In this document: piece by piece, positions 4,197 to 43,032 of the stretch
How positions within the stretch are numbered: the stretch's first letter is position 1
How the letters are laid out: each line of letters begins with the position of its first letter
NCBI GenBank assembly: GCA_965237865.1
Contig: OZ250164.1
Coordinates: 1,480,142 to 1,544,141 of the forward strand
Length of the DNA: 64,000 bases
Source of the DNA: Dehalococcoidia bacterium
Lineage (GTDB): Bacteria > Chloroflexota > Dehalococcoidia > UBA2979
Reading direction: 5' to 3'
Notes under the pieces: model-generated
Seen by the model: the letters and a program-made list of their open reading frames with translations, nothing else
Databases searched by the model: none
Told to the model about the DNA's origin: nothing
Translations under genes and position numbers: made by a program

Positions 4197-4657
4197 GACC
4201 GCTGAGCATTGGATACCGGAACGCTTGCCGGGTGTTGAGCCGTGCTGAACGAAACCTGCGGCGAGGGAGTCTGCTGGACGCCGAACTGCCACCATGTGGA
4301 GTGACTTCGCGCCCTCCGCGTTGACACTCCGGCACCGCCAGCCGTAGCCTCGATAGCGGTCGCAGCGTGAAGAGAGCGACGAAGAACGGGAGTAGTACGC
4401 CGCCACGCGGGGCCCAGAGAGCCGGGGCAAGGTGGAAGCCCGGCGCCCGACAGCAGCGGCGGAATGGACCCGGGAGTCTCGGCCCGAACGCCCCTCGGGG
4501 CAAGTAGGCGTCGACGGTGTGGGCGCCGTTATCCAGGCCCAGGGCATCGCCGCCACGTCCCGCATCCGGGGCAGCCGGGCGGCCGTGCCTTGAATGAGCG
4601 CGAGCCGCGCGGGCCTCGAGGCCTGCCGGCGCGCGGAACTTGGGTGGCGCCGCGAGG

Positions 4658-4685
4658 ACCATCGCCCCAGGGCGGTGGTTCTTTT
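4658..4685 (+). terminator. Candidate intrinsic terminator or attenuator-like hairpin upstream of the trp leader
   Basis: Stem 'CCAUCGCC' / 'GGCGGUGG' with one G-U pair and a CCAG loop, followed by 'UUCUUUUG'. U-rich tracts are rare at this GC content. Confidence 0.35.
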
Positions 4686-4730: not shown

Positions 4731-4850
4731 GTGCACAGCAGCCCTGCGCCGTACTGCCGCCAGTCCGCGCCGCGCCTCGGCGGCGTCTGGTGGTGGCCGC
4801 ACGCCGCACGGACGGAACGCTGCAGCGCACGGACAGGACCACGACGATGA
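4731..4850 (+). CDS. trpL: trp operon leader peptide (39 aa) with three consecutive Trp codons
   Basis: GTG start 9 nt downstream of the SD 'GAGGAGG'. Sequence reads '...RLGGVWWWPHAARTERCSARTGPRR*'. TGG TGG TGG lies at 4788-4796. Its stop TGA overlaps the trpE ATG as ATGA. Confidence 0.6.
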   Translation: MHSSPAPYCRQSAPRLGGVWWWPHAARTERCSARTGPRR

Positions 4851-6337
4851 CCCCACCCACCGCAACCCGCACGACACCGACCCGCGAGGAGCTGCGCCGC
4901 CTCGCCGCCGCCGGCGAGGGCAACCTCGCCGCGATCTACCGCGAGGTGCGCGCCGACCTCGAGACGCCCGTCTCCGCCTACCTCAAGGTCGCGCGCGGCG
5001 AGTACTCGTTCCTGCTCGAGTCCGTCGAGGGCGGCGAGCGCATGGGGCGCTACTCGTTCATCGGCACGGAGCCCTACCGCGTCAGCGCCCTGCATCACGA
5101 GGACGGCGATCCGCTGCTCGTGATCGAGGACGAGATCAGCCAGTTCCGCCCGGTGCCGGCGCCGGGCCTGCCGCGCTTCCACGGCGGCGCCGTCGGCTAC
5201 CTCGGCTACGAGGCGGTCGGGCACTTCGAGCGCGTGCCGCAGCCGGAGACGGACGCGCTGGGCGTGCCCGAGTCGTGGCTGATGTTCACGGATACGCTGC
5301 TCGTCTTCGACCACGTGCTGCACACCATCAAGGTGATCTCGCACGCGCGCCTCGACGGCGACATCGACGCCGCCTACGACGCCGCGGTCGCGAAGATCGA
5401 CCGCCTCACGGAGCGCCTCGCAGCCCCGCTCGCCGCGCTGCCCTACACCCCGCTCGACGGGCCGACGGGGCAGCCCATCGAGTCCAACTGGGCGCACGCG
5501 GACTACCTGGAGGCCGTCAAGACGACCAAGCGCTACATCACCGACGGCGACATCATCCAGGCGGTGATCGCGCAGCGCTTCTCGCGCAGGACCGGCGTAC
5601 ACGCGGTGGAGCTCTACCGCTCGCTGCGCGTGGTCAACCCCTCGCCCTACATGTACCTGCTGCAGTTCGGCGAGATCGCCATCGTTGGCGCCTCCCCCGA
5701 GCTGCTGGTGAAGGTCGAGGACGGCCGCGTCGACGTGCACCCGATCGCGGGCACGCGGCCACGCACCGGATCGCCCGCCGAGGACGAGCGGCTGGCCGAG
5801 GAGCTGCGCAACGATCCGAAGGAGATCGCGGAACACGTGATGCTGCTCGACCTCGGGCGCAACGACGTGGGGCGCGTCTCGAAGATCGGCTCGGTCGAGG
5901 TGACGCAGAGCTTCGACCTCGAGTTCTACTCGCACGTCATGCACCTCGTGAGCCACGTGCAGGGCGAGCTGCGCGAGGGGATGAGCGAGTACGACGCGCT
6001 GCGGTCGGCCTTCCCGGCGGGCACGGTCTCCGGCGCGCCGAAGATCCGCGCGATGGAGATCATCGCGGAGCTGGAGCCGGACCGGCGCGGCCCGTACGCG
6101 GGCGCGGTGGGGTTCTTCGACCTCTCGGGCAACGTCGAGACCTGCATCACGATCCGCACCGCGCTGCTGCGCGACGGCGTCGCCTACGTGCAGGCCGGCG
6201 GCGGCATCGTCTACGACTCCGACCCGCAGCGGGAGTTCGAGGAGACCCAGCACAAGGCGCGGGCGCTGATGGCCGCCATCGACGACGCCGAGGCGCGGGC
6301 CGGCGTCAGCACGCCGTCGGGAAGCCTGGGCTACTGA
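4847..6337 (+). CDS. trpE: Anthranilate synthase component I
   Basis: 496 aa from the internal ATG at 4847. Chorismate-binding domain motifs 'LLESVEGGE', 'GAVGYLGYE' and 'PAGTVSGAPKIRAMEII...GPYAGAVGF' are present. Confidence 0.93.
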   Translation: MTPPTATRTTPTREELRRLAAAGEGNLAAIYREVRADLETPVSAYLKVARGEYSFLLESVEGGERMGRYSFIGTEPYRVSALHHEDGDPLLVIEDEISQFRPVPAPGLPRFHGGAVGYLGYEAVGHFERVPQPETDALGVPESWLMFTDTLLVFDHVLHTIKVISHARLDGDIDAAYDAAVAKIDRLTERLAAPLAALPYTPLDGPTGQPIESNWAHADYLEAVKTTKRYITDGDIIQAVIAQRFSRRTGVHAVELYRSLRVVNPSPYMYLLQFGEIAIVGASPELLVKVEDGRVDVHPIAGTRPRTGSPAEDERLAEELRNDPKEIAEHVMLLDLGRNDVGRVSKIGSVEVTQSFDLEFYSHVMHLVSHVQGELREGMSEYDALRSAFPAGTVSGAPKIRAMEIIAELEPDRRGPYAGAVGFFDLSGNVETCITIRTALLRDGVAYVQAGGGIVYDSDPQREFEETQHKARALMAAIDDAEARAGVSTPSGSLGY

Positions 6338-7263
6338 TGGACGCCAAACCGCTCGTCGCCGCCGCCGCGCTGCGCCGCAGCGACGGACGCGTGCTGCTCG
6401 TGCAACACGCCCGGCAGGAGCGCAGCGGCGCCGGCAGCCGCTGGTCCCTGCCCTCGGAGCCCGTCGCCGACGACGAGACCGCGGAGCAGGCGCTGGCGCG
6501 GCTGCTGAACGACCGCCTGCACCTCACCCCGGACCGCGCCGAGTTCAACGACTCGATCGCGCTGCCGGACGCGATCGCCAACGTCTTCCTCTGCAGCTCG
6601 TGGCGAGGCGACCCGCAGTACGCGCCCGCCGACTTCCTCGATGCAGCGTGGGCGCCTCCCGGCGGGGCAGCCGGCATCAATGTCGTCGAGGGCGTGCGCG
6701 AATGGCTGCAGGGCCTGCCCGCGGACGGCGGCGCGCTCCCCAAGAGCGCAAGCCCCGACGAGCTGACCGCGGAGCTGATCACTGCGCGCGACGCGCTGCG
6801 CGCCGCCTACCTCGCCCTCGATGAGCCGTGGCGCGACGTCAGCCTCGACGGCGACTGGGCGCCGGTCGAGCTGCTCGCGCACTGCGCCACGGTCGAGGCC
6901 TACTACGCCTCCGAGGCGCGCGAGCTGCTGGAGACACCGGGCCACACCTGGCGCCCCTTCAACCCGGCGCAGGGCGCCGCCGAGCGCGCGGGCCGCGCGC
7001 GCCCGTCCAGCGATCGCGCCGAGCTCGAACGCCTCGATGTGCTGCGCACGGAGACGCTCGCCTGGGTCGAGACGCTCGGACGGGACGAGCTCGACGCCTA
7101 CGGCGACCACGCCGATCGCGGCGCGGTGCGTGTCGGCGATCGGATCGCGCGAATCGCGGCCCACGACAAGGCTCACACGCAGCAACTCGCGAAGATGCTC
7201 GCCGCCTCGCAGGCGGACCCCGCTGACGACGAGGAGGCCGACGATGCTTCTGCTGATCGATAA
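6338..7263 (+). CDS. NUDIX hydrolase N-terminal domain fused to a DinB/YfiT-like C-terminal domain (308 aa)
   Basis: Start ATG overlaps the trpE stop. N-terminal '...LVQHARQE..WSLPSEPV..ETAEQALARLL' is Nudix-like. C-terminal 'ELLAHCATVEAYY...IAAHDKAHTQQL' is DinB-like. The last six codons are encoded by the first copy of the 71-bp repeat. Confidence 0.6.
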
Positions 7264-7548
7264 CGTCCGCGCGCGGTCTGTGGCTTACATCCGTGGCCTG
7301 TCTGGAGCGTTCCCATGCTTCTCTTGATCGATAACGTCCGCAGGAGGTCTGTGGCTTACATCCGTGGCCTGTCTGGAGCGTTCCCATGCTTCTCTTGATC
7401 GATAACGTCCGCAGGAGGTCTGTGGCTTGCATCCGTGGCCTGTTTGGAGCGTACCCATGCTTCTCTTGATCGATAACGTCCGCGGGCGGTCTGTGGCCTA
7501 CATCCGTGGCCTGTTTGGAGCGTTCCCATGCTTCTACTGATCGATAAC
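7244..7548. repeat. Tandem direct repeat of a 71-bp unit x4, plus a fifth partial copy that is the trpG start
   Basis: The 'ATGCTTCT(C/G/A)(T/C)TGATCGATAAC' motif begins at 7244, 7315, 7386, 7457 and 7528, exactly 71 bp apart. Units are more than 90% identical. Each unit carries an internal 'AGGAGG' and starts a 27-codon ORF (MLLLIDNVRRRSVAYIRGLSGAFPCFS) whose TGA stop overlaps the next unit's ATG. Confidence 0.9.
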
Positions 7549-8121
7549 TACGATTCGTTCACCTACAACCTCTACCAGTACCTCTCCGAGCTGGGCGCGA
7601 CCGTCGAGGTCGTGCGCAACGACGAGGCCAGCGTCGAGGACTGCCTCGCGATGGGGCCGGAGCGGATCGTCGTCTCGCCGGGGCCGTGCACGCCGGCGGA
7701 GGCAGGCATCTCGATCGATCTGATCCGGGCGGCGGCCGGGCAGGTGCCGCTGCTCGGCGTCTGCCTCGGACACCAGAGCATCGGCGAGGCGTTCGGCGCG
7801 CGGGTCGGTCACGCGGGCGAGATCATGCACGGCAAGATCTCGACGGTGACGCACGACGGGCGAGGCGTCTTCGAGTCGCTGCCGCAGCCGTTCGAGGCGA
7901 TTCGCTATCATTCACTGGCGATCGAGCCGGACTCGCTGCCGGACGAGCTCGAGGTCTCGGCGCGCGCGGAGAGCGGGGTGATCATGGGTGTCCGCCACCG
8001 CACGCTGCCGATCGAGGGCGTCCAGTTCCACCCCGAGTCGATCATGACGGCCACGGGCCACGATCTGCTGCGCAACTTCCTCGCGATGGAGTCGCCGCGC
8101 ACAGCGGCGGCCCCGGCGTGA
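7528..8121 (+). CDS. trpG: Anthranilate synthase component II / glutamine amidotransferase
   Basis: 197 aa. Class-I GATase with 'GVCLGHQSIGEAFG' (catalytic Cys) and 'VQFHPES' (His). Confidence 0.93.
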   Translation: MLLLIDNYDSFTYNLYQYLSELGATVEVVRNDEASVEDCLAMGPERIVVSPGPCTPAEAGISIDLIRAAAGQVPLLGVCLGHQSIGEAFGARVGHAGEIMHGKISTVTHDGRGVFESLPQPFEAIRYHSLAIEPDSLPDELEVSARAESGVIMGVRHRTLPIEGVQFHPESIMTATGHDLLRNFLAMESPRTAAAPA

Positions 8122-8126
8122 GTCGG

Positions 8127-8179
8127 GAGGCGGCCTGAGTTGGGCACGTTCAACGTCACCATCGAAGTTGCGGCCGGAC
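8127..8179. repeat. Left copy of a ~53-bp direct repeat; contains the SD and TTG start of the retropepsin-like gene
   Basis: 'GAGGCGGCCTGAGTTGGGCACGTTCAACGTCACCATCGAAGTTGCGGCCGGAC'. A second copy lies at 8524-8581 with about 8 mismatches. Confidence 0.8.
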
Positions 8180-8535
8180 ACGAGGGACCATTCGAAACCC
8201 TCGACGCCGTCGTGGATACGGGCGCGACGTTCACCCGGGTGCCGTCCTCGATCTTGCAGCGCCTGGGTGTCGAACCCGCGCAGCGGCGCGAGTTCATCAC
8301 GCCCGACGGCAACCGCGTGGAACGCGGCGTGGGTTCAGTCGTGGTCCGGATCGACGAGGAAGCGTCCACTACGCTCGCCGTGTTTGGCGAGAGCGATGGC
8401 AACACGGTGCTCGGATCAGTGACGCTGGCGACGCTTGGCCTCGGGGTCGATCCGGCACGACAGCGGCTGGTTCAGGCACCCGCCTACCTCCCGAGCATCG
8501 TGCTGGCCCCCGACACGGAGCGAGAGGCGGTCTGA
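8140..8535 (+). CDS. Retropepsin-like (clan AA) aspartic protease, 131 aa, inserted between trpG and trpD
   Basis: TTG start preceded by 'GGGAGGCGG'. Catalytic motif 'VVDTGATFTRVP'. The size fits a single-lobe retropepsin or a DUF4124-type protease. Confidence 0.6.
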   Translation: MGTFNVTIEVAAGHEGPFETLDAVVDTGATFTRVPSSILQRLGVEPAQRREFITPDGNRVERGVGSVVVRIDEEASTTLAVFGESDGNTVLGSVTLATLGLGVDPARQRLVQAPAYLPSIVLAPDTEREAV

Positions 8536-8587
8536 GTTGGGCACGTTCAACATCGCCATCGAAGTAGCGGTCAGGCCAGACGCATGA
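8524..8587 (+). repeat. Right copy of the 53-bp direct repeat, encoding a 16-codon uORF coupled to trpD
   Basis: It re-creates the SD 'GAGAGGCGG' and a TTG start at 8540. The uORF reads 'MGTFNIAIEVAVRPDA*'. Its TGA stop at 8585-8587 overlaps the trpD ATG at 8584. Confidence 0.7.
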
Positions 8588-9603
8588 TCCGCGAAGCGAT
8601 CACGGCGATTGCGGGGGAGGGCCGCGACCTCAGCGAGGATGAGGCCGCCGCCGTGATGGGCGAGATCATGGAGGCGGAGGCGACGCCCGCGCAGTTCGGC
8701 GCCTTCGTCGTCGCGCTGCAGCACAAGGGCGAGACCGTCGACGAGGTCGTCGGGATGGCGCGCGTGATGCGAGAGCACTCGCTCAAGGCGCACGTCAGCG
8801 CGCGCCCGCTGCTCGACACCTGCGGCACCGGCGGCTCCGGGCTCAGCACGTTCAACGTCTCGACGGCGGCCGCGATCGTCGCCGCCTCCGCCGGGGCGAA
8901 GGTCGCCAAGCACGGCAACCGCGCGATGACCTCGCAGTCCGGCTCGGCCGACCTGCTCGAGGCGCTCGGGGCGGAGATCACACTTGCGCCGGAGCAGGTG
9001 GCGAGCTGCATCGAGCGCACCGGGCTGGGCTTCCTCTTCGCGCAGGCGTTCCACCCGGCGATGAAGTTCGCGGCGCCGTTGCGGCGCGAGATCGGCGTGC
9101 GCACGGTCTTCAACATCCTCGGCCCGCTCACCAACCCCGCCTCGGCCAACAGCCACGTGCTCGGCACGCCCAGCGTCGCCATCGCGGAGCTGCTCGCCGG
9201 GGCGCTGGCGCGCCTCGGCGTACGGCACGCCCTCGTGGTCTCGAGCGACGAGGGCCTCGACGAGATCTCGGTCTCGGCGCCGACGACGCTGTTCGAGGTC
9301 CGCGGCGCGGAGGTCACGCAACGCCGCGTCACGCCGAAGGACCTCGGCGTGATGGAGCGCACGCTCGACGAGGTGCGCGGCGGGAGCGCCGAGGAGAACG
9401 CAGCGGCGCTGCGCGCCGTGCTGCGCGGCGACGGCTCGGGGGCGCTGCGCGACTTCATCGCGATCAACGCCGGCGCGGGCCTCTACGTGTGCGGCCTCGC
9501 CGCCTCCATCCAGCAGGGCGCCGAACAGGCGCTGACGGCTATCGACGAGGGCGAGGCGGCCGCACGCCTCGGCGCCTTCGTCGAAGCCACACGGCGCAGT
9601 TGA
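8584..9603 (+). CDS. trpD: Anthranilate phosphoribosyltransferase
   Basis: 339 aa. Motifs 'DTCGTGGSG' and 'KHGNRAMTSQSGSADLLEALG'. Confidence 0.93.
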   Translation: MIREAITAIAGEGRDLSEDEAAAVMGEIMEAEATPAQFGAFVVALQHKGETVDEVVGMARVMREHSLKAHVSARPLLDTCGTGGSGLSTFNVSTAAAIVAASAGAKVAKHGNRAMTSQSGSADLLEALGAEITLAPEQVASCIERTGLGFLFAQAFHPAMKFAAPLRREIGVRTVFNILGPLTNPASANSHVLGTPSVAIAELLAGALARLGVRHALVVSSDEGLDEISVSAPTTLFEVRGAEVTQRRVTPKDLGVMERTLDEVRGGSAEENAAALRAVLRGDGSGALRDFIAINAGAGLYVCGLAASIQQGAEQALTAIDEGEAAARLGAFVEATRRS

Positions 9604-9607
9604 CGCG

Positions 9608-10507
9608 ATGACGGCGGACGCCTCGGCAGGCGCGGCAACGGATGCCGCTGGCCCGCGCGAGACGGGCACCGTGCTGGATCGCATCGTCGCCGACCGGCGA
9701 CTGCGGCTGGCCGAGGACCAGCGCGCGGCGCCTCCCGACGTGATCGAAGGCCTCGCCGCCTCGCGCCCGACGCCGATCGACTTCGCCGCTCGCCTCGTCG
9801 AGGGCCGAGCGGCCGCACCCGAAGGCGCGCGGCTGCGGTTGATCGCCGAGATCAAGCGCGCCTCGCCCTCCCGCGGCGTGATCGACGCCGGGCTCGACGC
9901 CGCCTCGCAGGCCCGCGCGTACGCCGCCGCGGGCGCCTCCGCCGTCTCCGTGCTGACCGAGCCGACGTTCTTCCAGGGCAGCATCGAGGACCTCGCGGCG
10001 GCCGCGGAGGCGTTCGGCAGCGACGCGGACCGGCCGGCGCTGCTGCGCAAGGACTTCGTGTTCGACGCCTACCAGGTCATCGAGGCGCGCGCGCACGGCG
10101 CGGACGCGCTGCTGCTGATCGCGATGATGCTGCCGCCCCGCACGCTCGCCTCGCTGCTCGCGCTCACGCACGCGCAGGGCATGGAGGCGCTGGTCGAGGT
10201 CCACGACGCCGAGGAGCTCGCGGCCGCCCTCGACGCCGGAGCGCGCGTGATCGGCGTCAACAACCGCGATCTGCGGACCTTCGACGAGGACCTCGCGACC
10301 TTCGAGCGGCTCGCGCCGCTCGCGCCGGACGGCGTCGCGCTCGTCGCCGAGTCGGCGATCCACACCGCCGGGGACGCGGCGCGGATGGCCGACGCCGGGG
10401 CGCACGCGCTGCTCGTCGGCGAGGCGCTCGTGCGCTCGGGCGACATCGCCTCGAAGGCGCGGGAATTGATGCTCGCGCCAGTGCGTCGCGGGGTGGCCGG
10501 CTCGTGA
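9608..10507 (+). CDS. trpC: Indole-3-glycerol phosphate synthase
   Basis: 299 aa. 'IAEIKRASPSRG' and 'LLRKDFVFDAYQVIEARAHGADALLLI' are IGPS signatures. Confidence 0.9.
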   Translation: MTADASAGAATDAAGPRETGTVLDRIVADRRLRLAEDQRAAPPDVIEGLAASRPTPIDFAARLVEGRAAAPEGARLRLIAEIKRASPSRGVIDAGLDAASQARAYAAAGASAVSVLTEPTFFQGSIEDLAAAAEAFGSDADRPALLRKDFVFDAYQVIEARAHGADALLLIAMMLPPRTLASLLALTHAQGMEALVEVHDAEELAAALDAGARVIGVNNRDLRTFDEDLATFERLAPLAPDGVALVAESAIHTAGDAARMADAGAHALLVGEALVRSGDIASKARELMLAPVRRGVAGS

Positions 10508-11250
10508 CGCTCGTCAAGATCTGCGGCAACCGCACGCCTGCCGACGTGCTCTCCGCGGCCGAGGCCGGCGCCGATTTCGTGGGGATATGCTTCGCGGAAT
10601 CGAGTCGCCAGGTTGGCGTCGCCGAGGCACAGGCGATGGTCCGCGCCCTCGGCGAGCCGCTTGCCGCGCACGAGATCGCGCTGCCGCCCCCCGCCTGGGG
10701 CCACGCGCGCGAGCACGAGCGCGAGTGGTTCCGCCACGGCGCGGAGGTGATCGAGGCCTACCTCGAGGCGAAGCGGCCGCTCACCGTCGGCCTCTTCGCC
10801 GACCAGCCGATCGAGGAGGTCAACGAGATCGCGCTGGAGACAGAGCTGGACCTGGTCCAGCTCTCCGGCGACGAGACCTGGGAGGACTGCCTGCTCGTCG
10901 CGCGGCAGGTGATCCAGGTCGTGCACGTCTCCCCGCTCGACTCGCCCTCGGACCCGCTCAGGTTCGTCGAGCCGGGCTTTGCGATCGCGCTGATGCTCGA
11001 CTCCGCGCACGGGCCGTACCGCGGCGGATCGGGGCGCGCGTTCGACTGGGAGGTGGCCCGTATCGTCTCCGCCGAGCTGCCGATGATGCTCGCCGGCGGC
11101 CTCACCCCGGAGAACGTCGGCGAGGCGATCGCCCGCGTCGCCCCGTGGGCCGTCGATGTCTCGAGCGGCACGGAGACTGACGGGCGCAAGGACCCCGCCC
11201 GCGTGCGCGACTTCATAGACGCAGTGCGCCGCCAGGACGCCGCTGCCTGA
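10504..11250 (+). CDS. trpF: Phosphoribosylanthranilate isomerase
   Basis: 248 aa. GTG start overlaps the trpC stop. 'VKICGNRTPADV' and 'MLAGGLTPENV' are PRAI motifs. It is about 35 aa longer than typical TrpF. Confidence 0.85.
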   Translation: MTLVKICGNRTPADVLSAAEAGADFVGICFAESSRQVGVAEAQAMVRALGEPLAAHEIALPPPAWGHAREHEREWFRHGAEVIEAYLEAKRPLTVGLFADQPIEEVNEIALETELDLVQLSGDETWEDCLLVARQVIQVVHVSPLDSPSDPLRFVEPGFAIALMLDSAHGPYRGGSGRAFDWEVARIVSAELPMMLAGGLTPENVGEAIARVAPWAVDVSSGTETDGRKDPARVRDFIDAVRRQDAAA

Positions 11251-11355
11251 CGCCAGGGTCCGTCGGGCGACGGCGCTCGGCGGACTGTGCCGAGTCCCTC
11301 CAGACGTTGCTGACAGCCTCTCGGCGGGTGGTAGCAGAGGAGCCGCCCCTCACCT

Positions 11356-11437
11356 CGGTATTGTCGTTGTGTCACAACGCTTCCCGACCGAGGGAGTCTG
11401 CCGCCCTGAGGATGGCGACACTGTGTCACAAGGTCGC
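11356..11437. promoter_or_regulatory. Two copies of an inverted-repeat operator-like motif TTGTG-T-CACAA, 64 bp apart, upstream of the STAS gene
   Basis: 'GTTGTGTCACAACG' at ~11359 and 'CACTGTGTCACAAGG' at ~11423. Each has a TGTG-N-CACA dyad. They lie in a 400-bp non-coding gap between trpF and the signalling module. Confidence 0.35.
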
Positions 11438-11657
11438 GGCTGTGCCTGGTGACCCGTCTGTCCGAGCGAGGCGATCCGCGAGTGCTACCGCGCGAGACGA
11501 ACACGAGGGGCGATCGGGCTCCCGGCGGCCTCAGGCGCTCCGAGGCCACACCAGTCAACCCGCACACATGCGCGGGCTGCAGTGGCTCACGTATACTCCG
11601 ACGGGGCTTGTACTGCCCCAGCCATCGATCACGAGGACGGGTTCAGGAGACGAACTT

Positions 11658-11996
11658 ATGGAAATCAACGCGGAGCGCGACGGCTCGACCGTCGTCGCCA
11701 AGCCGATGGGGCGCCTCGACGGCTCCAACGCGAGCGACTTCCAGGAAGCCCTTGAGGGGGCGATCGAGGAGAGCGATCGCGGCCTCGTCCTTGACTTCGA
11801 GGACATCTCCTACATCAGCAGCGCGGGACTCCGCGTCATCCTGCTCACGGCCCGGACCCTCCAGGGCAACGGCGGCTCAATGGCCCTCTGCTCCCTCGAC
11901 GCCCCGATCCGCGAGGTCTTCGCGATCAGTGGCTTCGACACCATCATCCCGATTCACGGTAACCGCGACGAGGCACTGGCTGCCGTCAGCGCGTAG
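11658..11996 (+). CDS. STAS-domain anti-sigma-factor antagonist (SpoIIAA/RsbV-like), 112 aa
   Basis: ATG lies 7 nt after 'AGGAGA'. 'DFEDISYISSAGLRVILL' carries the conserved phosphorylatable Ser. The longer ORF 11307..11996 in the track is rejected. Confidence 0.75.
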   Translation: MEINAERDGSTVVAKPMGRLDGSNASDFQEALEGAIEESDRGLVLDFEDISYISSAGLRVILLTARTLQGNGGSMALCSLDAPIREVFAISGFDTIIPIHGNRDEALAAVSA

Positions 11997-12050
11997 CCAG
12001 GGTCGCCCAGCCCGAACGAGAGACGCGCACCCCCTCCCCGAGACGACGCG

Positions 12051-13202
12051 ATGACCCACAAGATCCTGGTTGTTGACGACGAGCCTGACCTCGAACCCCT
12101 CATGCTCCAGCGCATGCGCCGCGACATCAGGCAGGGCGTCTACGAGTTCGTCTTCGCCCGGAACGGCGTGGAGGCGCTGCAGAAGCTCAACGAGGACGAC
12201 GGAATCGACATGGTCCTCTCCGACATCAACATGCCCGAGATGGACGGTCTCACCCTGCTGCAGCAGATTCCCTCGGTAAATCCGGACATCCGTGCCGTAA
12301 TCATCTCCGCCTACGGCGACATGCAGAACATCCGGACGGCCATGAACCGCGGCGCGTTCGACTTCGTGACCAAGCCGCTGGACTTCGACGACCTGCGGAT
12401 CACCGTCGACCGCACGCTCCAGCATGTCGAGGAGTGGCGCGAGGCGCTGCAGAGCCGCGACAGGCTGGTGACGCTACAGAACGAGCTGGATGTCGCCAGC
12501 AAGATGCAGCAGTCGATCCTCCCGACCGTCTTTCCCAGCGGCGAGAGCTACGAGACCTTCGGAACGATGCAGCCGGCCCGGAACGTGGGGGGTGACTTCT
12601 TCGACATCGTCCGCCTGCAGCACGATCAGATCGGCCTCGCCATCGCGGATGTGTCCGGCAAGGGCGTGCCCGCCGCCCTGTTCATGATGTCCAGCCGCAC
12701 CCTGCTCAAGGGCGCGGCGATCAGTTTCGAGGAACCCGGCCCCGTGCTGTCGGAGGTCAACAACCTGCTTCAGGAAGATGACACGGCGGGCATGTTCGTC
12801 ACCATGCTCTACGCCACCTACAGTCCCGCGACCGGGAACTTCACCTATGCCAGCGGCGGGCACGACGCCCCGCTCGTGATCCACGCCGACGGCAGCTCCA
12901 CGCTGCTGCCCCTGACCGGCGGTCTCGCCCTGGGCGTGGTGCCGGGTATCGAATACCGGCAGGAGAGCTACACGCTCGCCCCCGGCGACACCGTCGTCCT
13001 CTACACCGACGGCGTGACCGAGGCCACCAACATCGACGACGAACTGCTGGGAGTCGAAGGCATGCGCGAGTACTTCGGGCCCGAGCACCTGGCCGAAGAC
13101 GCGGAAACGACCGGTATCGAAATCATGAGGATGGTCAACGACTTCACCGGCGACGCACCCCAGCACGATGACGTCACCTGCCTGATCCTGCGACAGGAGT
13201 GA
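12051..13202 (+). CDS. Response-regulator receiver domain fused to a PP2C/SpoIIE-type Ser/Thr phosphatase (RsbU/RsbP-like)
   Basis: REC domain 'KILVVDDEPD..MVLSDINMPEMDG'. C-terminal PP2C motifs 'GGDFFDI', 'IADVSGKGVPAALFM', 'LYTDGVTEA' and 'DDVTCLIL'. Confidence 0.85.
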   Translation: MTHKILVVDDEPDLEPLMLQRMRRDIRQGVYEFVFARNGVEALQKLNEDDGIDMVLSDINMPEMDGLTLLQQIPSVNPDIRAVIISAYGDMQNIRTAMNRGAFDFVTKPLDFDDLRITVDRTLQHVEEWREALQSRDRLVTLQNELDVASKMQQSILPTVFPSGESYETFGTMQPARNVGGDFFDIVRLQHDQIGLAIADVSGKGVPAALFMMSSRTLLKGAAISFEEPGPVLSEVNNLLQEDDTAGMFVTMLYATYSPATGNFTYASGGHDAPLVIHADGSSTLLPLTGGLALGVVPGIEYRQESYTLAPGDTVVLYTDGVTEATNIDDELLGVEGMREYFGPEHLAEDAETTGIEIMRMVNDFTGDAPQHDDVTCLILRQE

Positions 13203-13206
13203 CGAG

Positions 13207-13626
13207 TTGAGCGCGGCACTCTCATTGACCGTTAAGACCGCCCACCACGAGCTGGAGCGGATTGTTGCCGCCATCGAGAACCTGGCGGAAGAGGACGACT
13301 GGCCGCCCGACCTGCTCTTCCGCGTGAATCTGGTGCTCGAGGAGCTGGGCCTGAACATCGTGGACTACGGGCACGATGACGAGACCCACGATTTCGAGAT
13401 CTCCCTGACATCCGAAGGAGACTCGGTGACGATCGAGATCGTCGACGGCGGACGGCCCTTCGATCCCCTGTCCGACGCTCCCGCTCCCGATCTGACGTCG
13501 GGGATCGCGGACAGGCGCATCGGGGGCCTCGGCGTCCACTTCGTGCGCACGCTGATGGACGACGTGCAGTACGAACGCTCCGCAGGCAAGAACCGGTTGA
13601 AGATGGTGACCCGCAAGGTCAGATGA
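13207..13626 (+). CDS. Anti-sigma regulatory factor-type Ser/Thr kinase (RsbW/SpoIIAB-like HATPase), 139 aa
   Basis: TTG start. 'RVNLVLEELGLNIVDYG' and 'IGGLGVHFVRTLMDDVQY' (G-box) are GHKL-kinase motifs. No sigma-factor gene is adjacent. Confidence 0.7.
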   Translation: MSAALSLTVKTAHHELERIVAAIENLAEEDDWPPDLLFRVNLVLEELGLNIVDYGHDDETHDFEISLTSEGDSVTIEIVDGGRPFDPLSDAPAPDLTSGIADRRIGGLGVHFVRTLMDDVQYERSAGKNRLKMVTRKVR

Positions 13627-14894
13627 GGCGGCAGCGCCCCGTGCGAGTTGTCGGGCTGACAGCGGTCTGTCTGGTGCTTGCGGCGTCTCTCCTCGCGGGC
13701 TGCGGCCTCGGCGGCGGCGGATCGGACGGCGTCGAACCCGTCGATGGCGCCCCGACGCCGACCGCGACCGTTGAGGCCGGGACACCCGGCGTATCCGAAG
13801 ACCGGATCCTGTTCGGCCAGTCCGCAGCCTTCAATGGGCCCGCGCAGGAACTCGGCAAGAACATGCGGATTGGCATCAACGCCGCGTTTGCCGAGACCAA
13901 CCTGGCCGGGGGCGTCCATGGCCGGCTGCTGGAGCTCTTCTCCCTCGACGACTCTTACGAGCCGGAAGCCGCGATCGCCAATACCCGGCGCCTGATCGAG
14001 GAGGAGGGTGTGTTCGCGCTGATCGGCGCGGTCGGCACTCCCACCTCCCGCTCCGCCACCCCCATCGCCGCGGACGCAGGTGTCCCCTACATCGCGCCGT
14101 TCACCGGCGCTGCGTTCCTGCGCGACCCGGAGTGGGACAACATCATCAACCTGCGCGCCTCCTACGCCCAGGAGACCGAGGAGATGGTGGCCCGGCTCAT
14201 AGGCGACCTGGGCATCGAGCGCATCGGCATCATGTACCAGGACGACTCCTACGGCCGCGCCGGCTACAGCGGCGCGCTCGCTGCGCTGCAGCGCCGGGGG
14301 CGCGAGCCCGTGGCCATCGGCCTGTATCCCCGCAATACGACCGCCGTCAAGACGGCACTCCTCGACCTGCGCGAGGGCGCCCCCGAAGCGGTCATCATGA
14401 TCGGCGCCTACGAGCCGATGGCAGCGCTGATCAAGTGGGGCCGAGCCACCGGGTTCAACCCGGTGTTCCTGAACGTCTCGTTCGTCGGCAGCAACGCGCT
14501 GGCCCAGGAACTGGGCACTGACGGCGCGGGCGTCGTCGTGACCCAGGTCGTTCCCTTCCCGGACGACGACTCACTCCCGCTGATCGCCGCCTACAAGCGC
14601 GCCCTGGCCGTCTACGCGCCAGACGCCGTCCCCGGTTTTGTCTCCCTCGAGGGCTACCTCGCCGGCCGGCTCGCCATCGCGGGGCTCGATAGCTGCGGCC
14701 CCGCGGTCGACCGTGCCTGTTTCGTGAACGCCCTCCTCGGGGCGGACGCCATCGACATCGATGGCTTCGAACTCAGCTTCGGCGAGAACGACAACCAGGG
14801 CTCGGACTCCGTGTTCATCACGGTGATCGGCTCAGACGGCCTCTATCATCCGATTGAGACGCTGCAGGACTTGGAGTCATGGTCGACAAACTGA
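13623..14894 (+). CDS. Periplasmic solute-binding lipoprotein, type-1 PBP (LivK/amino-acid-binding-like); orphan, no permease or ATPase genes adjacent
   Basis: Lipobox 'LLAGCG'. The venus-flytrap PBP fold is inferred from length and composition. The gene overlaps both the kinase upstream and the sensor kinase downstream. Confidence 0.7.
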   Translation: MRRQRPVRVVGLTAVCLVLAASLLAGCGLGGGGSDGVEPVDGAPTPTATVEAGTPGVSEDRILFGQSAAFNGPAQELGKNMRIGINAAFAETNLAGGVHGRLLELFSLDDSYEPEAAIANTRRLIEEEGVFALIGAVGTPTSRSATPIAADAGVPYIAPFTGAAFLRDPEWDNIINLRASYAQETEEMVARLIGDLGIERIGIMYQDDSYGRAGYSGALAALQRRGREPVAIGLYPRNTTAVKTALLDLREGAPEAVIMIGAYEPMAALIKWGRATGFNPVFLNVSFVGSNALAQELGTDGAGVVVTQVVPFPDDDSLPLIAAYKRALAVYAPDAVPGFVSLEGYLAGRLAIAGLDSCGPAVDRACFVNALLGADAIDIDGFELSFGENDNQGSDSVFITVIGSDGLYHPIETLQDLESWSTN

Positions 14895-17065
14895 AGCGCC
14901 TGCTCGAGAGCCGCTTCCGGATCTCCACCCAGTTGTACCTGGCCATGGGTGGCGCGGTCCTCCTCACGCTGGCCGCCAGTCTGGTCGCCTGGTTCTCCTT
15001 CAATCAGGTCGGGGAGGTCCAGAGCAACGTCAATGAAGGCAGCGTGCCTGAACTGGCCGCCGCGTTCGGCGTCGCCCAGTACAGCGGCATCCTGGTAGCA
15101 GCGGCTCCCAACCTTACCGTCGCCGCCACGCCGGAGGAGTTCGACCAGGTCGTCCTGAGCATCGATCAGGCGTACGCCTCGTTCGAGGAGCAGATGGCCG
15201 CGCTCGAGGAGGGCGACAGCGAGCGCGAGCGCGTGGTCCGCATCCGCGGCTACGCCGACACGCTCATCTCCAATATCGAAGCGCTTGAGAGCGAGACCTC
15301 CGGAGTGTTCGAGCTGATCGTCCGCCGGGAGGCGCTGCAACTGGAGCTCACGGAAGTGCGCGCCCAGCTGGACGATGCGCTTGCGCCTGCCATCGACGAT
15401 CAGCTGTTCTTCACACTGACCGGCTACCGGGATCTCTCGGCGCCCCCAGCCCCGCGCTCGGAGCACCTCTCCGAGGACCAGTTCGTGCGCTACCGGCGCC
15501 TCGCCGAGTTGCAGGCGGACGTGAACATCGCGACCGAACTCCTCGCGAACGCATTCACCCTTTCGGACGCATCCCTGATCGAGCCGCTCAGGGAACGCTT
15601 CGAATCCACGGTTAGCCGTATCGACCGGAATCTGGCGGCGCTGGCGGGGTCTCCCTTCCACGACGAAGCGGCGCCAACCTTCACCCGGCTGTTCGCGCTT
15701 GGCTCGGGCGAGACAAGCGTGTTCGATCTGTTCGCCAGCGAACTCAGAATCGTGGGACGCCAGGCGGAGTTGCTTGACCTCAATCGCGACCTCTCGGTCG
15801 AGGTGATCGCGGAGGTGGACGGCCTGGTGAGCGCCGCCCAGGCGAGCGCCGGGGACGCCACCGAGGCATCCACGCAGGCGATCTTCACGGGCCGGGTGCT
15901 GCTGCTCGCCATCAACGTGATCAGCATCACGGGCGCGCTGCTGATCACGTGGCTGTTCATCGGCCGGGTGCTGCTGCGGCGCATCGGGATGCTGTCGGAG
16001 TGGATGCGCGGCATGGCCCAGGGAGACCTGGAGACCCGCGCCGAAATTGGCGGGCGGGACGAGGTCGCGGAGATGGCCGCCGCCCTCGACGTGTTCCGGC
16101 GTCACGCCCTGGAAGTGCAGCGCCTGAACCTCGTCGAGGAGCTCGCGGAGGAACTCCAGGGCAAGAACGACGAACTCGAGTACGTGCTGGCCCAGCTGCA
16201 GCAGGCGCAGGACCAGATCGTCATGCGGGAGAAGCTGGCGGCGCTCGGTGAACTCACGGCAGGCATCGCCCACGAGATCCGCAACCCGCTGAACTTCGTG
16301 AAGAACTTCGCCGAGGCCTCGGGCGAACTGGTGGACGAACTGAAGGAGATCCTGGAAGAGGAAGGCGTCGAACTGACGGACGAGCAGCGCGATATGGTCG
16401 AGGAGATCACCGGCGACCTGACCAGCAACGTCGAACGCATCCGCTCACACGGCGAGCGCGCGAACCGCATCGTGCAGGACATGCTGAGTATGGGCCGGGG
16501 CTCGCAGGAGTGGCAGACCGTCGAAGTCAACGCGCTGGTGGAGCAGCATGCCATGCTGGCCTACCACAGCGCACGGGCGACGAACCCCGACTTCCAGCTG
16601 GACATCCAGCGCGACTTCGATCCCGAAGCGGGGGATCTCGAGGTCATCCCCCAGGATCTGGGACGCGTCTTCCTCAACATGGTGGGCAACGCCTGTCACG
16701 CGACGCACGAACGGCGCATGTCGGCAGCGGAGACCGGGCTCACGAGCAGGGAGTACATGCCGACGCTGACGCTGGGCACGCGCCGCGAGGGCGATCAGAT
16801 CGAGGTCCGCATCCGCGACAACGGCTCCGGCATCCCGCCGGACATCATCGAGAAGATCTTCAATCCCTTCTTCACGACCAAGCCGACAGATCAGGGCACG
16901 GGACTCGGGCTGGCGATCTCCAGCGACATCGTGCGTCGCCACGGCGGGCACATACGCGTCGAATCGGAGCCGGGCGAATTCACCGAAATGACCGTCGAGT
17001 TGCCGCTGGAGCGGCCGCCCGAGGCGAACCCGGCAGCGCTGGCGGCCCATCCCGGGTTCGAATAG
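14879..17065 (+). CDS. Sensor histidine kinase: two TM helices, ~300-aa periplasmic domain, HAMP, HisKA, HATPase_c
   Basis: TM1 'LYLAMGGAVLLTLAASLVAWF'. TM2 'LLLAINVISITGALLITWLFIG'. H-box 'GIAHEIRNPLNF'. N/G-boxes 'MVGNACHAT' and 'GTGLGLAIS'. Confidence 0.88.
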   Translation: MVDKLKRLLESRFRISTQLYLAMGGAVLLTLAASLVAWFSFNQVGEVQSNVNEGSVPELAAAFGVAQYSGILVAAAPNLTVAATPEEFDQVVLSIDQAYASFEEQMAALEEGDSERERVVRIRGYADTLISNIEALESETSGVFELIVRREALQLELTEVRAQLDDALAPAIDDQLFFTLTGYRDLSAPPAPRSEHLSEDQFVRYRRLAELQADVNIATELLANAFTLSDASLIEPLRERFESTVSRIDRNLAALAGSPFHDEAAPTFTRLFALGSGETSVFDLFASELRIVGRQAELLDLNRDLSVEVIAEVDGLVSAAQASAGDATEASTQAIFTGRVLLLAINVISITGALLITWLFIGRVLLRRIGMLSEWMRGMAQGDLETRAEIGGRDEVAEMAAALDVFRRHALEVQRLNLVEELAEELQGKNDELEYVLAQLQQAQDQIVMREKLAALGELTAGIAHEIRNPLNFVKNFAEASGELVDELKEILEEEGVELTDEQRDMVEEITGDLTSNVERIRSHGERANRIVQDMLSMGRGSQEWQTVEVNALVEQHAMLAYHSARATNPDFQLDIQRDFDPEAGDLEVIPQDLGRVFLNMVGNACHATHERRMSAAETGLTSREYMPTLTLGTRREGDQIEVRIRDNGSGIPPDIIEKIFNPFFTTKPTDQGTGLGLAISSDIVRRHGGHIRVESEPGEFTEMTVELPLERPPEANPAALAAHPGFE

Positions 17066-17301
17066 CCCTCGCCTGCTACAACCGGCGCGACGCGCGGCGG
17101 GGTTGTGGCACAGTGCCGCGCGCCACTTCCTGCGTGGTGCGTTCGCCGCGTGCGCGCAACGCCGCTCGCCGCAGCCGCTGAGACACGTCGGCGCTATCAT
17201 CGACAGACACCGCGCGCGAGGCGAAGAGGGTGCCACGTGGGAGCGCTCCAGACAGTGATCGAAGCGGCGGCCCTCGCCGGCCTGCGGTCGCAGGCAGCCG
17301 C

Positions 17302-18516
17302 ATGACCGCGACCGTGGGCCGCTCCGCCCTGCCCGACGAGCGCGGCTACTTCGGCGCCTTCGGCGGGCGCTACGTGCCTGAGACGCTGATGCCCGCGCTC
17401 GGCGAGCTGGAGGAGGCCTACGCCGCCGCCCGCGAGGACGAGTCCTTCCGCGAGGAGCTCGAGCGGCTACTGCGCGACTTCGTCGGCCGGCCCACGCCGA
17501 TCACGCGCGCGGATCGCCTCGCACGGCGGATCGCGGGCGATCGCGCGCCGCTCGTCTACCTCAAGCGCGAGGACCTGACCCACACCGGCGCGCACAAGAT
17601 CAACGCCGCGCTGGCGCAGGGCCTGCTCGCGCAGCGCATGGGCAAGCCGCGCATCGTCGCGGAGACCGGCGCCGGGCAGCACGGCGTGGCGACGGCCACC
17701 GCCTGCGCGCTGCTCGGCCTCGAATGCGTCGTCTACATGGGCGCCGAGGACGTGCGGCGTCAGGCGCTCAACGTCTTCCGCATGAAGCTCCTCGGCGCCG
17801 AGGTGCGTACCGTCGACTCCGGCTCGCGCACGCTCAAGGACGCGATCAACGAGGCGATCCGCGACTGGGTCACGAACGTGCGCAGCACGTACTACCTGCT
17901 CGGCTCGGTCGTGGGGCCGCACCCCTATCCGCTGCTCGTCCGCGACTTCCAGGCCGTGATCGGCCGGGAGGCGCGGGAGCAACTGCTGGAGGCCGAGGGG
18001 CGGCTGCCCTCGATCGCGCTCGCCTGCGTCGGCGGCGGCTCGAACGCGATCGGGCTGTTCCACGCCTTCGTCGAGGACCCCGTGCGCCTGATCGGCGTCG
18101 AGGCGGCGGGCGAGGGCCTTGATGGGCGGCACGCGGCGCCGCTCGCGGCCGGCACGCCCGGGGTACTGCACGGCTCGCGTTCGTACCTGCTGCAGGACGC
18201 GCACGGGCAGGTCACCGAGGCGCACTCGATCTCGGCCGGCCTCGACTACCCCGGCGTCGGACCGGAGCACTCCTGGCTGAAGGTCAGCGAGCGCGCCGAG
18301 TACGTCTCCGCCACGGACGAGGAGGCGCTCGCCGCCTTCCGGCTGCTCAGCGAGACGGAGGGCATCATCCCGGCGCTGGAGCCCGCGCACGCCCTCGCGT
18401 ACCTCGCGAAGCTGCTGCCCGAGCTCGGCGAGGACGAGCTGGTGCTCGTCAACCTCAGCGGACGCGGCGACAAGGACATGGGCACGGTCGCCGACGCGCT
18501 CGGCCTCACGCTCTAG
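17302..18516 (+). CDS. trpB: Tryptophan synthase beta chain
   Basis: Internal ATG. 'GGRYVPETL', '[10 protein letters not shown]' (PLP Lys) and 'GGGSNAIG' are TrpB motifs. Confidence 0.93.
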
Positions 18517-18566: not shown

Positions 18567-19283
18567 GTGATCGCTGATCGTGCCGAACCGGGGATCGCGA
18601 CGCTCCCGCCGCTGTGGCGCGTGCGCGACATGGTCTCCGCCCTCGCTGTCGTCGTCCTCGCATTCGCCACGCTCGGGATCCTCTTCGCCACCACGGCGGA
18701 GCGAGGCACGGGAGTCAACGCCGCCGGCTTAGCCGCCATCGTCGGCTTCAACCTGCTCCTCGTGGCGACAGTGCTACTGCTCGCAGCGCGGCGCGGGATC
18801 ACGCTGGCCGAACTCGGCTTCGTGCGGCCGCGCGTCTGGGGCCCGATCGCCATCGCCTGGTTCGGGGCCTACGTGATCCTCGGCTGCTACGTCGCCGGCA
18901 TCGCGCTGCTCGACACGCTCGGACTGCCGGTCGAGGCGTTCGAGGGCGGCAATACGATCGACTTCGACCAGAGCCGCGTAGTCCTCGTGGTCGTGCTTGC
19001 GATCGCCACCGTGATCGGGGCGCCGTTCAGCGAGGAGCTGCTGTTCCGAGGACTGTTGCATCGCGGGCTGCGCGGCTACTGGCGTCCGCTTCCGGCGATG
19101 GCGCTGAGCGGGGCGCTGTTCGGCATCTTCCACGTGAACCTCGCCGTGCTGGTGCCGTTCGCCTTCATCGGCGTGCTGTGGGCGTGGGCCTACGAGGAGT
19201 CCGGCTCGCTCTGGACGACGATCACGGCACACGCCGGCGTCAACGGCGTCGCGTTCGCCGCTACACTGATCTTCCTCGATTGA
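18567..19283 (+). CDS. CPBP-family (CAAX/Abi) intramembrane metalloprotease inserted between trpB and trpA
   Basis: Multi-TM protein. 'EELLFRGLL' and 'FGIFHVN' are the CPBP motifs 1 and 2. The probable start is the ATG at 18630. Confidence 0.75.
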   Translation: MIADRAEPGIATLPPLWRVRDMVSALAVVVLAFATLGILFATTAERGTGVNAAGLAAIVGFNLLLVATVLLLAARRGITLAELGFVRPRVWGPIAIAWFGAYVILGCYVAGIALLDTLGLPVEAFEGGNTIDFDQSRVVLVVVLAIATVIGAPFSEELLFRGLLHRGLRGYWRPLPAMALSGALFGIFHVNLAVLVPFAFIGVLWAWAYEESGSLWTTITAHAGVNGVAFAATLIFLD

Positions 19284-42935: not shown

Positions 42936-43032
42936 TGTCGATCGCCAGGGTCTTCTTACCAGTCGTCGCCAGAGTCATTTGACCACCCTGGGCAGCCGGT
43001 ACGCGGCTTGATATCAGTGCCTGTCTGTGTCG

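Follow-up and report, generated by a model that had tools for sequence, protein, structure and literature searches.

Direct repeats around a retropepsin-like gene in a Dehalococcoidia tryptophan operon as probable remnants of a tandem gene duplication

Introduction

How did a gene for a retropepsin-like protein come to stand between trpG and trpD in the tryptophan (Trp) operon of a Dehalococcoidia bacterium (GenBank contig OZ250164.1), and why is its own 5′ end repeated directly after it, in front of trpD? The operon lies on the + strand of a 64,000-nt stretch of this contig, which was analyzed as a whole and is hereafter called the window. A sequence-only reading of this DNA had recognized a 131-residue retropepsin-like protein with a VVDTGATF motif between trpG and trpD, and this identification holds, given its DTGA motif and the structural matches of its predicted fold (see below). 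For the flanking repeats it had offered two origins, a cassette-like insertion or a duplication-driven process that preserves translational coupling. Our comparisons favor the second, which is borne out by a two-copy state in one relative (L007) and by in-frame truncations in others. We consider it probable that a resident gene underwent a 397-nt tandem duplication into two copies (P1 and P2), and that an in-frame deletion within P2 left a stump that relays ribosomes to trpD.

The repeat is the start region of the gene itself

A repeat search aligned positions 8111–8194 with 8508–8591 at 63 of 84 nucleotides (75%), with a core (8124–8176 versus 8521–8573) that is identical at 46 of 53 nucleotides and spaced by 397 nt. 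The core corresponds to the ~53-bp repeat of the gene's own 5′ end described earlier; the repeat as such stands, but its boundary has to be moved, since the similarity extends past the Shine–Dalgarno (SD) sequence to ~29 nt 5′ of the start codon, where copy 1 covers the end of trpG and copy 2 the end of the protease gene. The second copy holds, as had been claimed, a 16-codon open reading frame (ORF) that runs from TTG at 8537 to TGA at 8585–8587 (MGTFNIAIEVAVRPDA*) and whose stop overlaps the trpD ATG (8584) as ATGA. This stump is one block aligned to the gene head (58/76), followed directly by CATGA. Its last codons (VRPDA*) were also tried as a tail of P2 and rejected, a gap-tolerant alignment fitting them better to head codons 11–16 and then CATGA.

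A 32-nt pattern of the core, allowing up to three mismatches, occurs at only two sites in the 64 kb, with none expected from shuffled sequence. A nucleotide profile of gene heads, built from relatives only, finds just three sites in the same DNA, at 8116–8198, 8517–8582 (E 4e-13) and 17214–17272 (E 0.01). Because these matches are the protease gene, the stump before trpD and a further stump before trpB, the repeat is not a dispersed element; the possibility that the 53-bp sequence is widespread, raised in the sequence-only reading, gives way to gene-derived sites alone.

The trpG–trpD junction in relatives

The closest protein-database homologues of P1 (59–95% identical) all lie between trpG and trpD in metagenome-assembled genomes of Chloroflexi/Dehalococcoidia. 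A TrpD scan of species-representative genomes yielded 80 loci, which were mapped by tblastn; L-numbers denote these loci of relatives, and P-numbers such as P0040 denote protein homologues. The gene occupies the junction in 21/21 distinct assemblies with TrpD at least 91% identical to that of the window (20 by direct inspection; the L097 contig ends inside trpD) and in four of the six loci with TrpD at 81–84% (three single copies and the two-copy locus L020), the other two (L016, L018) being empty. The junction is empty too in the 10 outgroups in the tree (TrpD at most 72% identical), where trpG and trpD overlap (ATGA/GTGA) or lie <60 nt apart, in agreement with the earlier statement that the two genes are otherwise adjacent or overlapping. 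A concatenated TrpE/G/D/C tree unites 19 of the loci at or above 81% in one clade.

The empty L016 and L018 are best read as secondary loss because they are nested inside this occupied clade, beside the occupied L022. Their junction reads TAG-GGCGAGAGGACACGTC-ATG, with no copy of the repeat, where an empty site with a single copy had been anticipated, and the SD that elsewhere precedes the protease gene (GGCGAGAGG) stands directly before trpD. Since it is present across a monophyletic clade, in all sampled genomes but these two, the gene is, to judge by its distribution, not a recent arrival; on this reading it has long been lodged in the trp operon of a single Dehalococcoidia clade, exactly between the old trpD SD and the trpD start codon.

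The occupied junctions fall into several states. L007/L012 feature a full tandem of P1 (131 residues) and P2 (126 residues), whose starts are 397 nt apart, as are the repeats of the window; the P1–P2 joint (...GAGCGAGAGGCGGTCTGAG-ATGGGC) is the same junction as in the window, and P2 ends with a stop codon that overlaps the ATG of trpD. The last ~10 codons of P1 (APDTEREAV*) are read from the duplicated trpG-end/SD region, its tail gagcgagaggcggtcTGAg copying the trpG–protease spacer gaggcgagaggcggccTGAg, and this tail is the joint that a tandem duplication would leave if its unit ran from the last trpG codons to ~codon 121 of the gene. We posit that a ~397-nt tandem duplication of this unit would have generated P1 and P2. 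P1 now extends across the copied SD region and stops at a TGA that leaves a single base ahead of the P2 start, and P2, where complete, ends in ATGA on the trpD start. In the lineage of the window, an in-frame deletion would then have removed ~330 nt of P2, leaving a 16-codon ORF with an SD, a TTG and a stop on the trpD ATG. A tandem duplicate of which only the stump survives is the most likely source of the downstream repeat, and the '53-bp direct repeats' would be the beginnings of duplication units 1 and 2 and not an insertion scar.

P1 followed by the 16-codon stump is displayed by the window, L001/L096, L002 and L097, and other relatives retain different parts of P2. A 19-codon stump follows P1 in L003/L008 and L009; it aligns to the last 66 nt of the L010 copy (50/66), with its final 45 nt corresponding to the 15 terminal codons of P2. 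An 11-codon stump in L005/L006 consists of ATGGGCACG and the last ~8 codons of a P2-type gene, and L004 has P1 fused in frame to the last five P2 codons. The DTGA string in the L005 stump (MGTALRTDTGA*) was considered as an active-site fragment and discarded as a coincidence, as it aligns to the P2 tail (IRMDNGS*). L010, L011, L013, L014, L017 and L019 (126 residues) and L015 and L022 (128 residues) carry just one copy, which overlaps trpD by its stop codon and is followed by no repeat; together with L004, these make nine relatives in which the gene lacks a flanking repeat, the very situation that the sequence-only reading had named beforehand as speaking against its own interpretation.

Several of the single copies resemble in-register P1/P2 recombinants, and the head segments are mosaic, which indicates unequal crossing-over and gene conversion at the junction. 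In the gene tree, all trp-site copies (P1, P2 and trpB-site) form one clade that excludes the non-trp homologues (P0097, P0104) and the copy in the distant locus L048; genomes of both host subclades occur within the P1 lineage and again within the P2 lineage, and the duplication is therefore old. L020 (5147–6004) carries a separate and more recent tandem duplication, with a 477-nt unit and a single base difference in the 30 nt 5′ of the copies; its copy 1 (152 residues) reads into an apparent trpD-head fragment (..VIRENEAAAVTGEI..) before its stop.

These states bear on two other origins of the repeats. With the gene as a mobile unit and the repeats as a duplication made on insertion, a cassette-like event would account for direct repeats that do bracket the gene, and an independent insertion in L048, flanked by a duplicated trpD head, indicates that some locally duplicating insertion process exists in the phylum. 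However, the repeats comprise the gene's own 5′ end plus ~30 nt and not target sequence, nine relatives have the gene without a flanking repeat, the empty L016 and L018 hold no repeat copy and are nested in the occupied clade as secondary losses, and L007 displays the full two-copy intermediate. Moreover, no integrase or transposase was called within ~4 kb in the seven gene-called loci, the gene has no viral, PHROG or PADLOC hits, and the element is not dispersed. We accordingly hold a cassette-like insertion to be very improbable.

The other origin is a partial duplication, in which only the ~85-nt start region was ever copied in the window lineage, for example as a new initiation region for trpD. 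A stump made of one head block (58/76) and CATGA, with no clear 3′ sequence of P2, is what such an event would leave, but the 397-nt spacing equals one full unit, and the P1 tail, which is the duplication junction, is common to L007 and L003/L009 of the same tight clade. L007 has a full P2 and the L003/L009 stump has its last 15 codons, so that several extra independent events would be needed for these relatives; we rate the partial duplication as quite unlikely.

A probable parallel decay in front of trpB

In the L007 and L004 genomes, a third paralogue (P0040, P0044) lies directly 5′ of trpB, its stop overlapping the trpB ATG, and L088 and L095 have a full 126-residue gene at this site. The window has here a 22-codon ORF (17237–17305) whose TGA overlaps the trpB ATG at 17302, and L096 has the same 22-codon ORF. 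Against the full gene of L088/L095, the SD region and first 12 codons of this ORF correspond to the head (52/65) and its last 10 codons to the tail (44/58). We posit that the gene decay proposed at trpD would also have taken place 5′ of trpB.

In-frame remnants as a probable ribosome relay

The three joints have a geometry suited to coupling, with TGA (8533–8535)-G-TTG (8537) between P1 and the stump, ATGA at 8584–8587 on trpD and ATGA at 17302–17305 on trpB. Computed anti-SD pairing is strong for P1 (−10.9 kcal/mol) and for the stumps before trpD (−8.7) and trpB (−8.9), against a mean of −3.7 and a 5th percentile of −8.6 kcal/mol at random positions, whereas trpD (−3.8) and trpB (about −3.0, computed one base off the true trpB start) have the pairing of the random background. 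From these features we infer a relay from trpG through the protease gene and the stump to trpD: the strong SDs of P1 and of the stump would recruit ribosomes, which after terminating at ATGA would start anew on trpD, a gene with no SD of its own. Selection would then keep the start, frame and stop of the stump, but not its peptide.

The pattern of decay is consistent with such selection. All five illegitimate deletions (the window, L003 and L005 types, the L004 fusion and the trpB stump) are in frame, as is the independent L048 fusion, and six of six has a chance probability of ~0.001 if frames were random. Between the window and L096, its closest relative, genes differ at 0.6–5.9% of positions (P1 at 2.3%), the stumps at 23–25% (the trpD stump at 23%) with no indels in 113 nt, and the true spacers at 14–27% with eight indel events in 497 nt; the stumps drift ~10 times as fast as the genes. 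The stump start codons of relatives vary only among valid starts (TTG to GTG). Because divergence at the spacer rate comes without indels and only valid starts replace one another, the stump peptide is likely unconstrained while the start, frame and end of the ORF are kept. The stump is apparently kept open since it hands ribosomes to the next trp gene.

A different role for the 16-codon ORF, as a regulatory leader peptide or functional micropeptide (e.g., in Trp-dependent attenuation of trpD), would fit a short ORF that directly precedes a trp gene and is conserved in relatives. Neither stump has a Trp codon, however, and the peptide is 23% diverged between genomes whose genes differ by ~2%; in relatives its length (11, 16 or 19 codons) and sequence vary. 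No terminator-like site or significant RNA structure (z = −1.25) accompanies it, and a Trp T-box at the start of the operon probably provides regulation already. Attenuation through Trp codons was rejected for want of both such codons and a terminator, no internal promoter- or terminator-like site was found, and we regard a leader peptide or micropeptide as scarcely credible.

Across 6390–18200, the window and L096 differ by 14–27% in spacers and by ~2–3% in coding sequence, with a synonymous divergence of ~0.07 and a G+C content at third codon positions (GC3) of 0.90–0.97. This suggests that synonymous sites are under very strong constraint or subject to biased conversion, or else that the spacers are hypervariable.

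The retropepsin-like protein

P1 starts with TTG and encodes 131 residues, with VVDTGATF at residues 24–31 and DTGA at 26–29. It scores 24.7 bits against PF13650, just above the cutoff of 24.3, and 26.1 bits against PF13975, below the cutoff of 28.2. Its match to TIGR03698 (clan_AA_DTGF; 45.1 bits, E 1e-11, model positions 2–106 of 107) scores under the cutoff of 57.35; P1 is related to this family yet outside its curated set. An AlphaFold model built with 51 homologues (predicted local distance difference test 90.3, predicted template modeling score 0.80) presents an all-beta fold of ~120 residues with a hydrophobic-hydrophobic-Gly motif, residues 121–131 being disordered. In a Foldseek search of the PDB, every match with E ≤1e-3 has the aspartic-protease fold, among them APRc (5c9f), the proteases of feline immunodeficiency virus (FIV), simian foamy virus (SFV), equine infectious anemia virus (EIAV) and xenotropic murine leukemia virus-related virus (XMRV), and the C-terminal domain of Rv0977 (probability 1.00, TM 0.5–0.6); Ddi1 ranks just above E 1e-3. 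A sequence search of the PDB with P1 found no relative, and neither did scans of JGI metagenomes and IMG/VR with the protease alignment. PADLOC and PHROGs gave no hits for the gene; across IMG/VR, PHROG, PADLOC and the neighbor genes, no link of P1 to phages, defense systems or mobile elements was found.

The catalytic motif has a patchy distribution. Eight of the ten closest database homologues (59–95% identical) are of the P1 type, and six of these eight lack the D-T/S-G motif. Degenerate versions in the P1 type read DTD, DSD, DAD or GTR, and the 128-residue group has AGSRQ, AGSGQ or AGNGQ; the 126-residue type retains the motif. Catalysis is evidently dispensable across much of the P1 lineage, as these replacements suggest. 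In the window itself DTGA is intact, and P1 is therefore likely to be a small aspartic protease that works as a dimer in the cytoplasm and shares its expression under the Trp T-box with the Trp enzymes. There are only two hints of its function, this T-box co-expression and the occurrence of the family in both trp operons.

The motif losses raise the question of whether the protein matters at all. The entire P1 ORF could be a conduit for ribosomes to trpD and the gene a decaying passenger: beside repeated loss of the catalytic motif (DTD, DSD, DAD, GTR, AGSRQ), P1 has a non-synonymous rate (dN) 5–10 times that of neighboring genes and a GC3 of 0.80 against 0.90–0.97 in its neighbors, and copies were lost or collapsed in many lineages. 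The ratio of dN to the synonymous rate (dS) is 0.3–0.5 in 10 of 11 pairs and 0.78, on nine substitutions, in the closest pair, and so stays below 1 in every pair. P1 differs from its closest relative by 2.3%, against 23–25% for the unconstrained stumps, and the positions that define the fold, the hydrophobic-hydrophobic-Gly motif (L91 G92) among them, do not vary in the 51 homologues. Given this low divergence, dN/dS below 1, the invariant fold positions and a confident model, P1 is to all appearance still constrained as a protein sequence, and a mere passenger is unlikely.

In the more distant pairs, dS of P1 is 2–4 times that of the flanking genes, with no excess against L001, L002 and L009; the excess suggests replacement of the retropepsin-like gene by an allele or paralogue. 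Two further homologues look like decayed family members: P0032 (140 residues) switches mid-gene to an alternative reading frame, like a frameshifted copy, and P0120 (111 residues) is without the active-site segment.

Points that weigh against the proposed history

Several observations count against a history of duplication, in-frame decay and relay. The window stump has no 3′-diagnostic sequence of P2 beyond GCATGA, and for this reason its origin from a full copy rests on the relatives (L007 and the L003-type stump). Mixed states among very close relatives and mosaic heads mean that recombination blurs the number and order of events. The proposed coupling draws on geometry and computed SD energies, as would loading at the stump SD and reinitiation at ATGA. 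The lack of indels in 113 nt is weakly significant by itself (P ~0.16 at the spacer indel rate), and the folding of the RNA near the trpD start does not stand out (z = −1.25), for which reason RNA structure masking that start was rejected. Most close relatives of P1 have lost the catalytic motif, and one of them is L097, which has exactly the TrpG of the window; 'protease' may therefore overstate the role of P1.

Operon context

The coordinates of the operon features are collected in Table 1. The T-box leader matches RF00230 at 43.3 bits (gathering score 93) with E 7e-7 to 3e-8; its alignment places GAA-UGG-A at the specifier position and leaves the antiterminator half of the model unmatched, and a terminator-like hairpin with a T-run lies at 4661–4679. 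The entire operon, with the protease gene in it, is probably regulated by this leader. Besides the clade, outgroups with as little as ~37% identity carry the Nudix-DinB fusion gene. Downstream of trpB follow an Rce1-like (CPBP) membrane protease gene (18567–19283), trpA and a chorismate mutase gene, as identified with Pfam.

Table 1. Features of the trp operon region of the window, with coordinates on the 64,000-nt stretch
Feature	Coordinates	Strand	Basis
T-box leader (Stem I), UGG (Trp) specifier	4373–4534	+	Rfam RF00230, 5′ of trpE
trpE (anthranilate synthase component I)	4847–6337	+	tblastn map; Pfam Chorismate_bind in orthologues
Nudix-DinB fusion gene, between trpE and trpG	6337–7263	+	PF00293 and PF12867
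71-bp tandem array, 4.3 copies	7244–7548	+	TRF; repeat search
trpG (anthranilate synthase component II)	7528–8121	+	PF00117 E 1e-60; TIGR00566
Repeat copy 1: last trpG codons, 18-nt spacer with SD GGGAGG (8125–8130), TTG, first ~18 protease codons	8111–8194	+	
Retropepsin-like gene P1, 131 residues	8140–8535	+	Pfam, NCBIfam, AlphaFold, Foldseek
Repeat copy 2: last P1 codons, SD GAGAGG (8522–8527), P1 TGA (8533–8535), one base, TTG, stump	8508–8591	+	
16-codon stump ORF	8537–8587	+	Repeat copy 2, junctions of relatives
trpD (anthranilate phosphoribosyltransferase), without own SD	8584–9603	+	TIGR01245 E 6e-121
trpC	9608–10507	+	tblastn map; Pfam IGPS/PRAI in orthologues
trpF	10504–11250	+	tblastn map; Pfam IGPS/PRAI in orthologues
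22-codon stump ORF, 5′ of trpB	17237–17305	+	Alignment to full gene in L088, L095
trpB, without own SD	17302–18516	+	Pfam

The unit of the 71-bp array at trpG consists of the first seven trpG codons and a 50-nt segment with an SD, and each unit has a 27-codon ORF that ends 10 nt past the next ATG. The number of extra units is zero in L003, L004, L013 and L097, one in L001, L002, L005, L007, L009, L010, L014 and L019, three in L011 and four in the window. Within the 1.1 Mb of fetched DNA, the 50-nt part has no other occurrence and the 71-bp unit is restricted to a single junction; the 50-nt part was tried as a protease tail, and the similarity is too weak to claim. Elsewhere in the window, a cluster of tandem repeats at 42211–42985 has periods of 42, 36, 216 and 24 nt, the 216-nt unit occurring twice at 95% identity.

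Other occupants of the trpG–trpD junction

Further loci display other arrangements between trpG and trpD. In L048 (5690–6000), a distant family member with a DSG motif is independently inserted at ~codon 11 of trpD, and the 18-codon ORF ahead of it is a second copy of the trpD head (MAIREAIAAIVNRGAYTR*); the N-terminal 75 residues of the protease are fused in frame to TrpD, which is without its own start codon. In the distant Chloroflexota locus L032 (5485–6004), the gap holds a ribbon-helix-helix antitoxin and a ParE toxin whose stop overlaps the trpD start. Full antitoxin/ParE pairs are also seen in L034, L037, L051 and L064, the pair being confirmed by Pfam in L032 only, and similar antitoxin-like ORFs occur in L033, L043, L045, L057, L058 and L084. 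Other occupants are a B3/4-domain gene (L046, L056), a Schlafen AlbA_2 gene (L062) and ORFs of ~200 codons with no Pfam match (L044, L053, L078). The trpG–trpD junction is, by this inventory, a recurrent landing site for accessory genes in Chloroflexota.

Relation to known systems

Tandem duplicates are subject to birth-and-death evolution through unequal crossing-over, gene conversion and deletion. The two-copy, hybrid single-copy, stump and empty states of the relatives and their mosaic heads conform to this scheme; unlike in the general scheme, the deletions here stay in frame and keep start and stop signals, apparently as the essential downstream gene depends on them.

Coupling by termination-reinitiation has precedents in trp operons: Oppenheim and Yanofsky reportedly described it in 1980 for trpE-trpD and trpB-trpA of E. 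coli. Termination-reinitiation at overlapping stop/start codons (ATGA, TGATG) has been surveyed (PMC6728339, PMC10666635), and the locus shares with it the −4 overlap (ATGA) onto trpD and trpB, the TGA-N-TTG between P1 and the stump, and downstream genes without an SD. It differs in that no functional gene serves as the upstream partner, only the 16 or 22 codons left of a deleted one, the coupling being read from sequence. Short upstream ORFs with the sole role of delivering a ribosome to a coupled gene have been proposed in a review (PMC12548453, which cites Shell et al. 2015 and Supply et al. 1997), and the small ORFs of the window are similar in having their own SD, an unconstrained peptide and a −4 end on the start of an essential gene. 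The same review describes mycobacterial interspersed repetitive units (MIRUs) that insert at start codons with their own ORF coupled at −4. The full-length retropepsin-like genes likewise sit exactly at start codons (trpD, trpB), with expression minimally disturbed, but here the unit is the remnant of a protein-coding gene, and the element is neither dispersed nor mobile: in place of a 40–100-bp sequence at many loci, there are three heads of one gene family in 64 kb. The 71-bp array at trpG is like the MIRUs in form but confined to one locus.

Retropepsin-like proteases are known from other bacteria, and APRc, one of these, is membrane-anchored. Characterized examples are APRc of Rickettsia (PMC4140852, PDB 5C9F), RimB of Pseudomonas, which is reported to act on ribosome modification (PMC11957791), and RloA–C, which are reported to be secreted (PMC12239564). 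Like such proteases P1 has a DTGA motif, a hydrophobic-hydrophobic-Gly motif and an all-beta predicted fold, and its top structural matches are APRc and retroviral proteases; it differs from APRc, RimB and the Rlo enzymes as a stand-alone gene in tryptophan operons with a motif that is not conserved in its closest relatives. No relevant literature was found for TIGR03698/PF13650 or for a link of retropepsins to tryptophan operons.

Biological meaning

The coupling geometry is classical, and P1 adds to the retropepsin-like clan a new member whose context is unusual; the locus extends known principles. The combination of a tandem-duplicate remnant as a relay ORF, at two trp genes and through several independent in-frame decays, appears undescribed in the literature searched, in which we also found no ribosome-delivering upstream ORF traced to a gene remnant. 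The locus offers a natural and replicated case of a decaying gene that leaves behind a minimal ORF, apparently kept only to pass ribosomes to an essential neighbor, the replication consisting of five in-frame deletions at two sites in the clade and one in-frame fusion in an unrelated lineage.

One may speculate further, with a small but real chance of being right, that the retropepsin-like genes are 'start-codon lodgers', a family that would take up position right at the start codon of an essential biosynthetic gene, as at trpD and trpB in this clade and separately at trpD in L048, and would tie host translation to itself through the −4 overlap. Its loss could then come about only through in-frame decay, with a relay ORF left in place. 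Such lodgers, if real, would parallel MIRU insertion in protein-coding form and amount to a passive kind of addiction; ParDE pairs at the same trpG–trpD junction in other Chloroflexota fit a niche for selfish genes. Alternatively, since the gene stands under a Trp T-box and in both trp operons, the protein may have a real role tied to Trp starvation.

For annotation, such repeats would be duplication remnants and not scars of mobile elements, and the short ORFs that they contain are likely left uncalled. For the family, the tie of small retropepsin-like genes to both trp operons, clade-wide and previously unremarked, is a lead to the function of these uncharacterized proteins.

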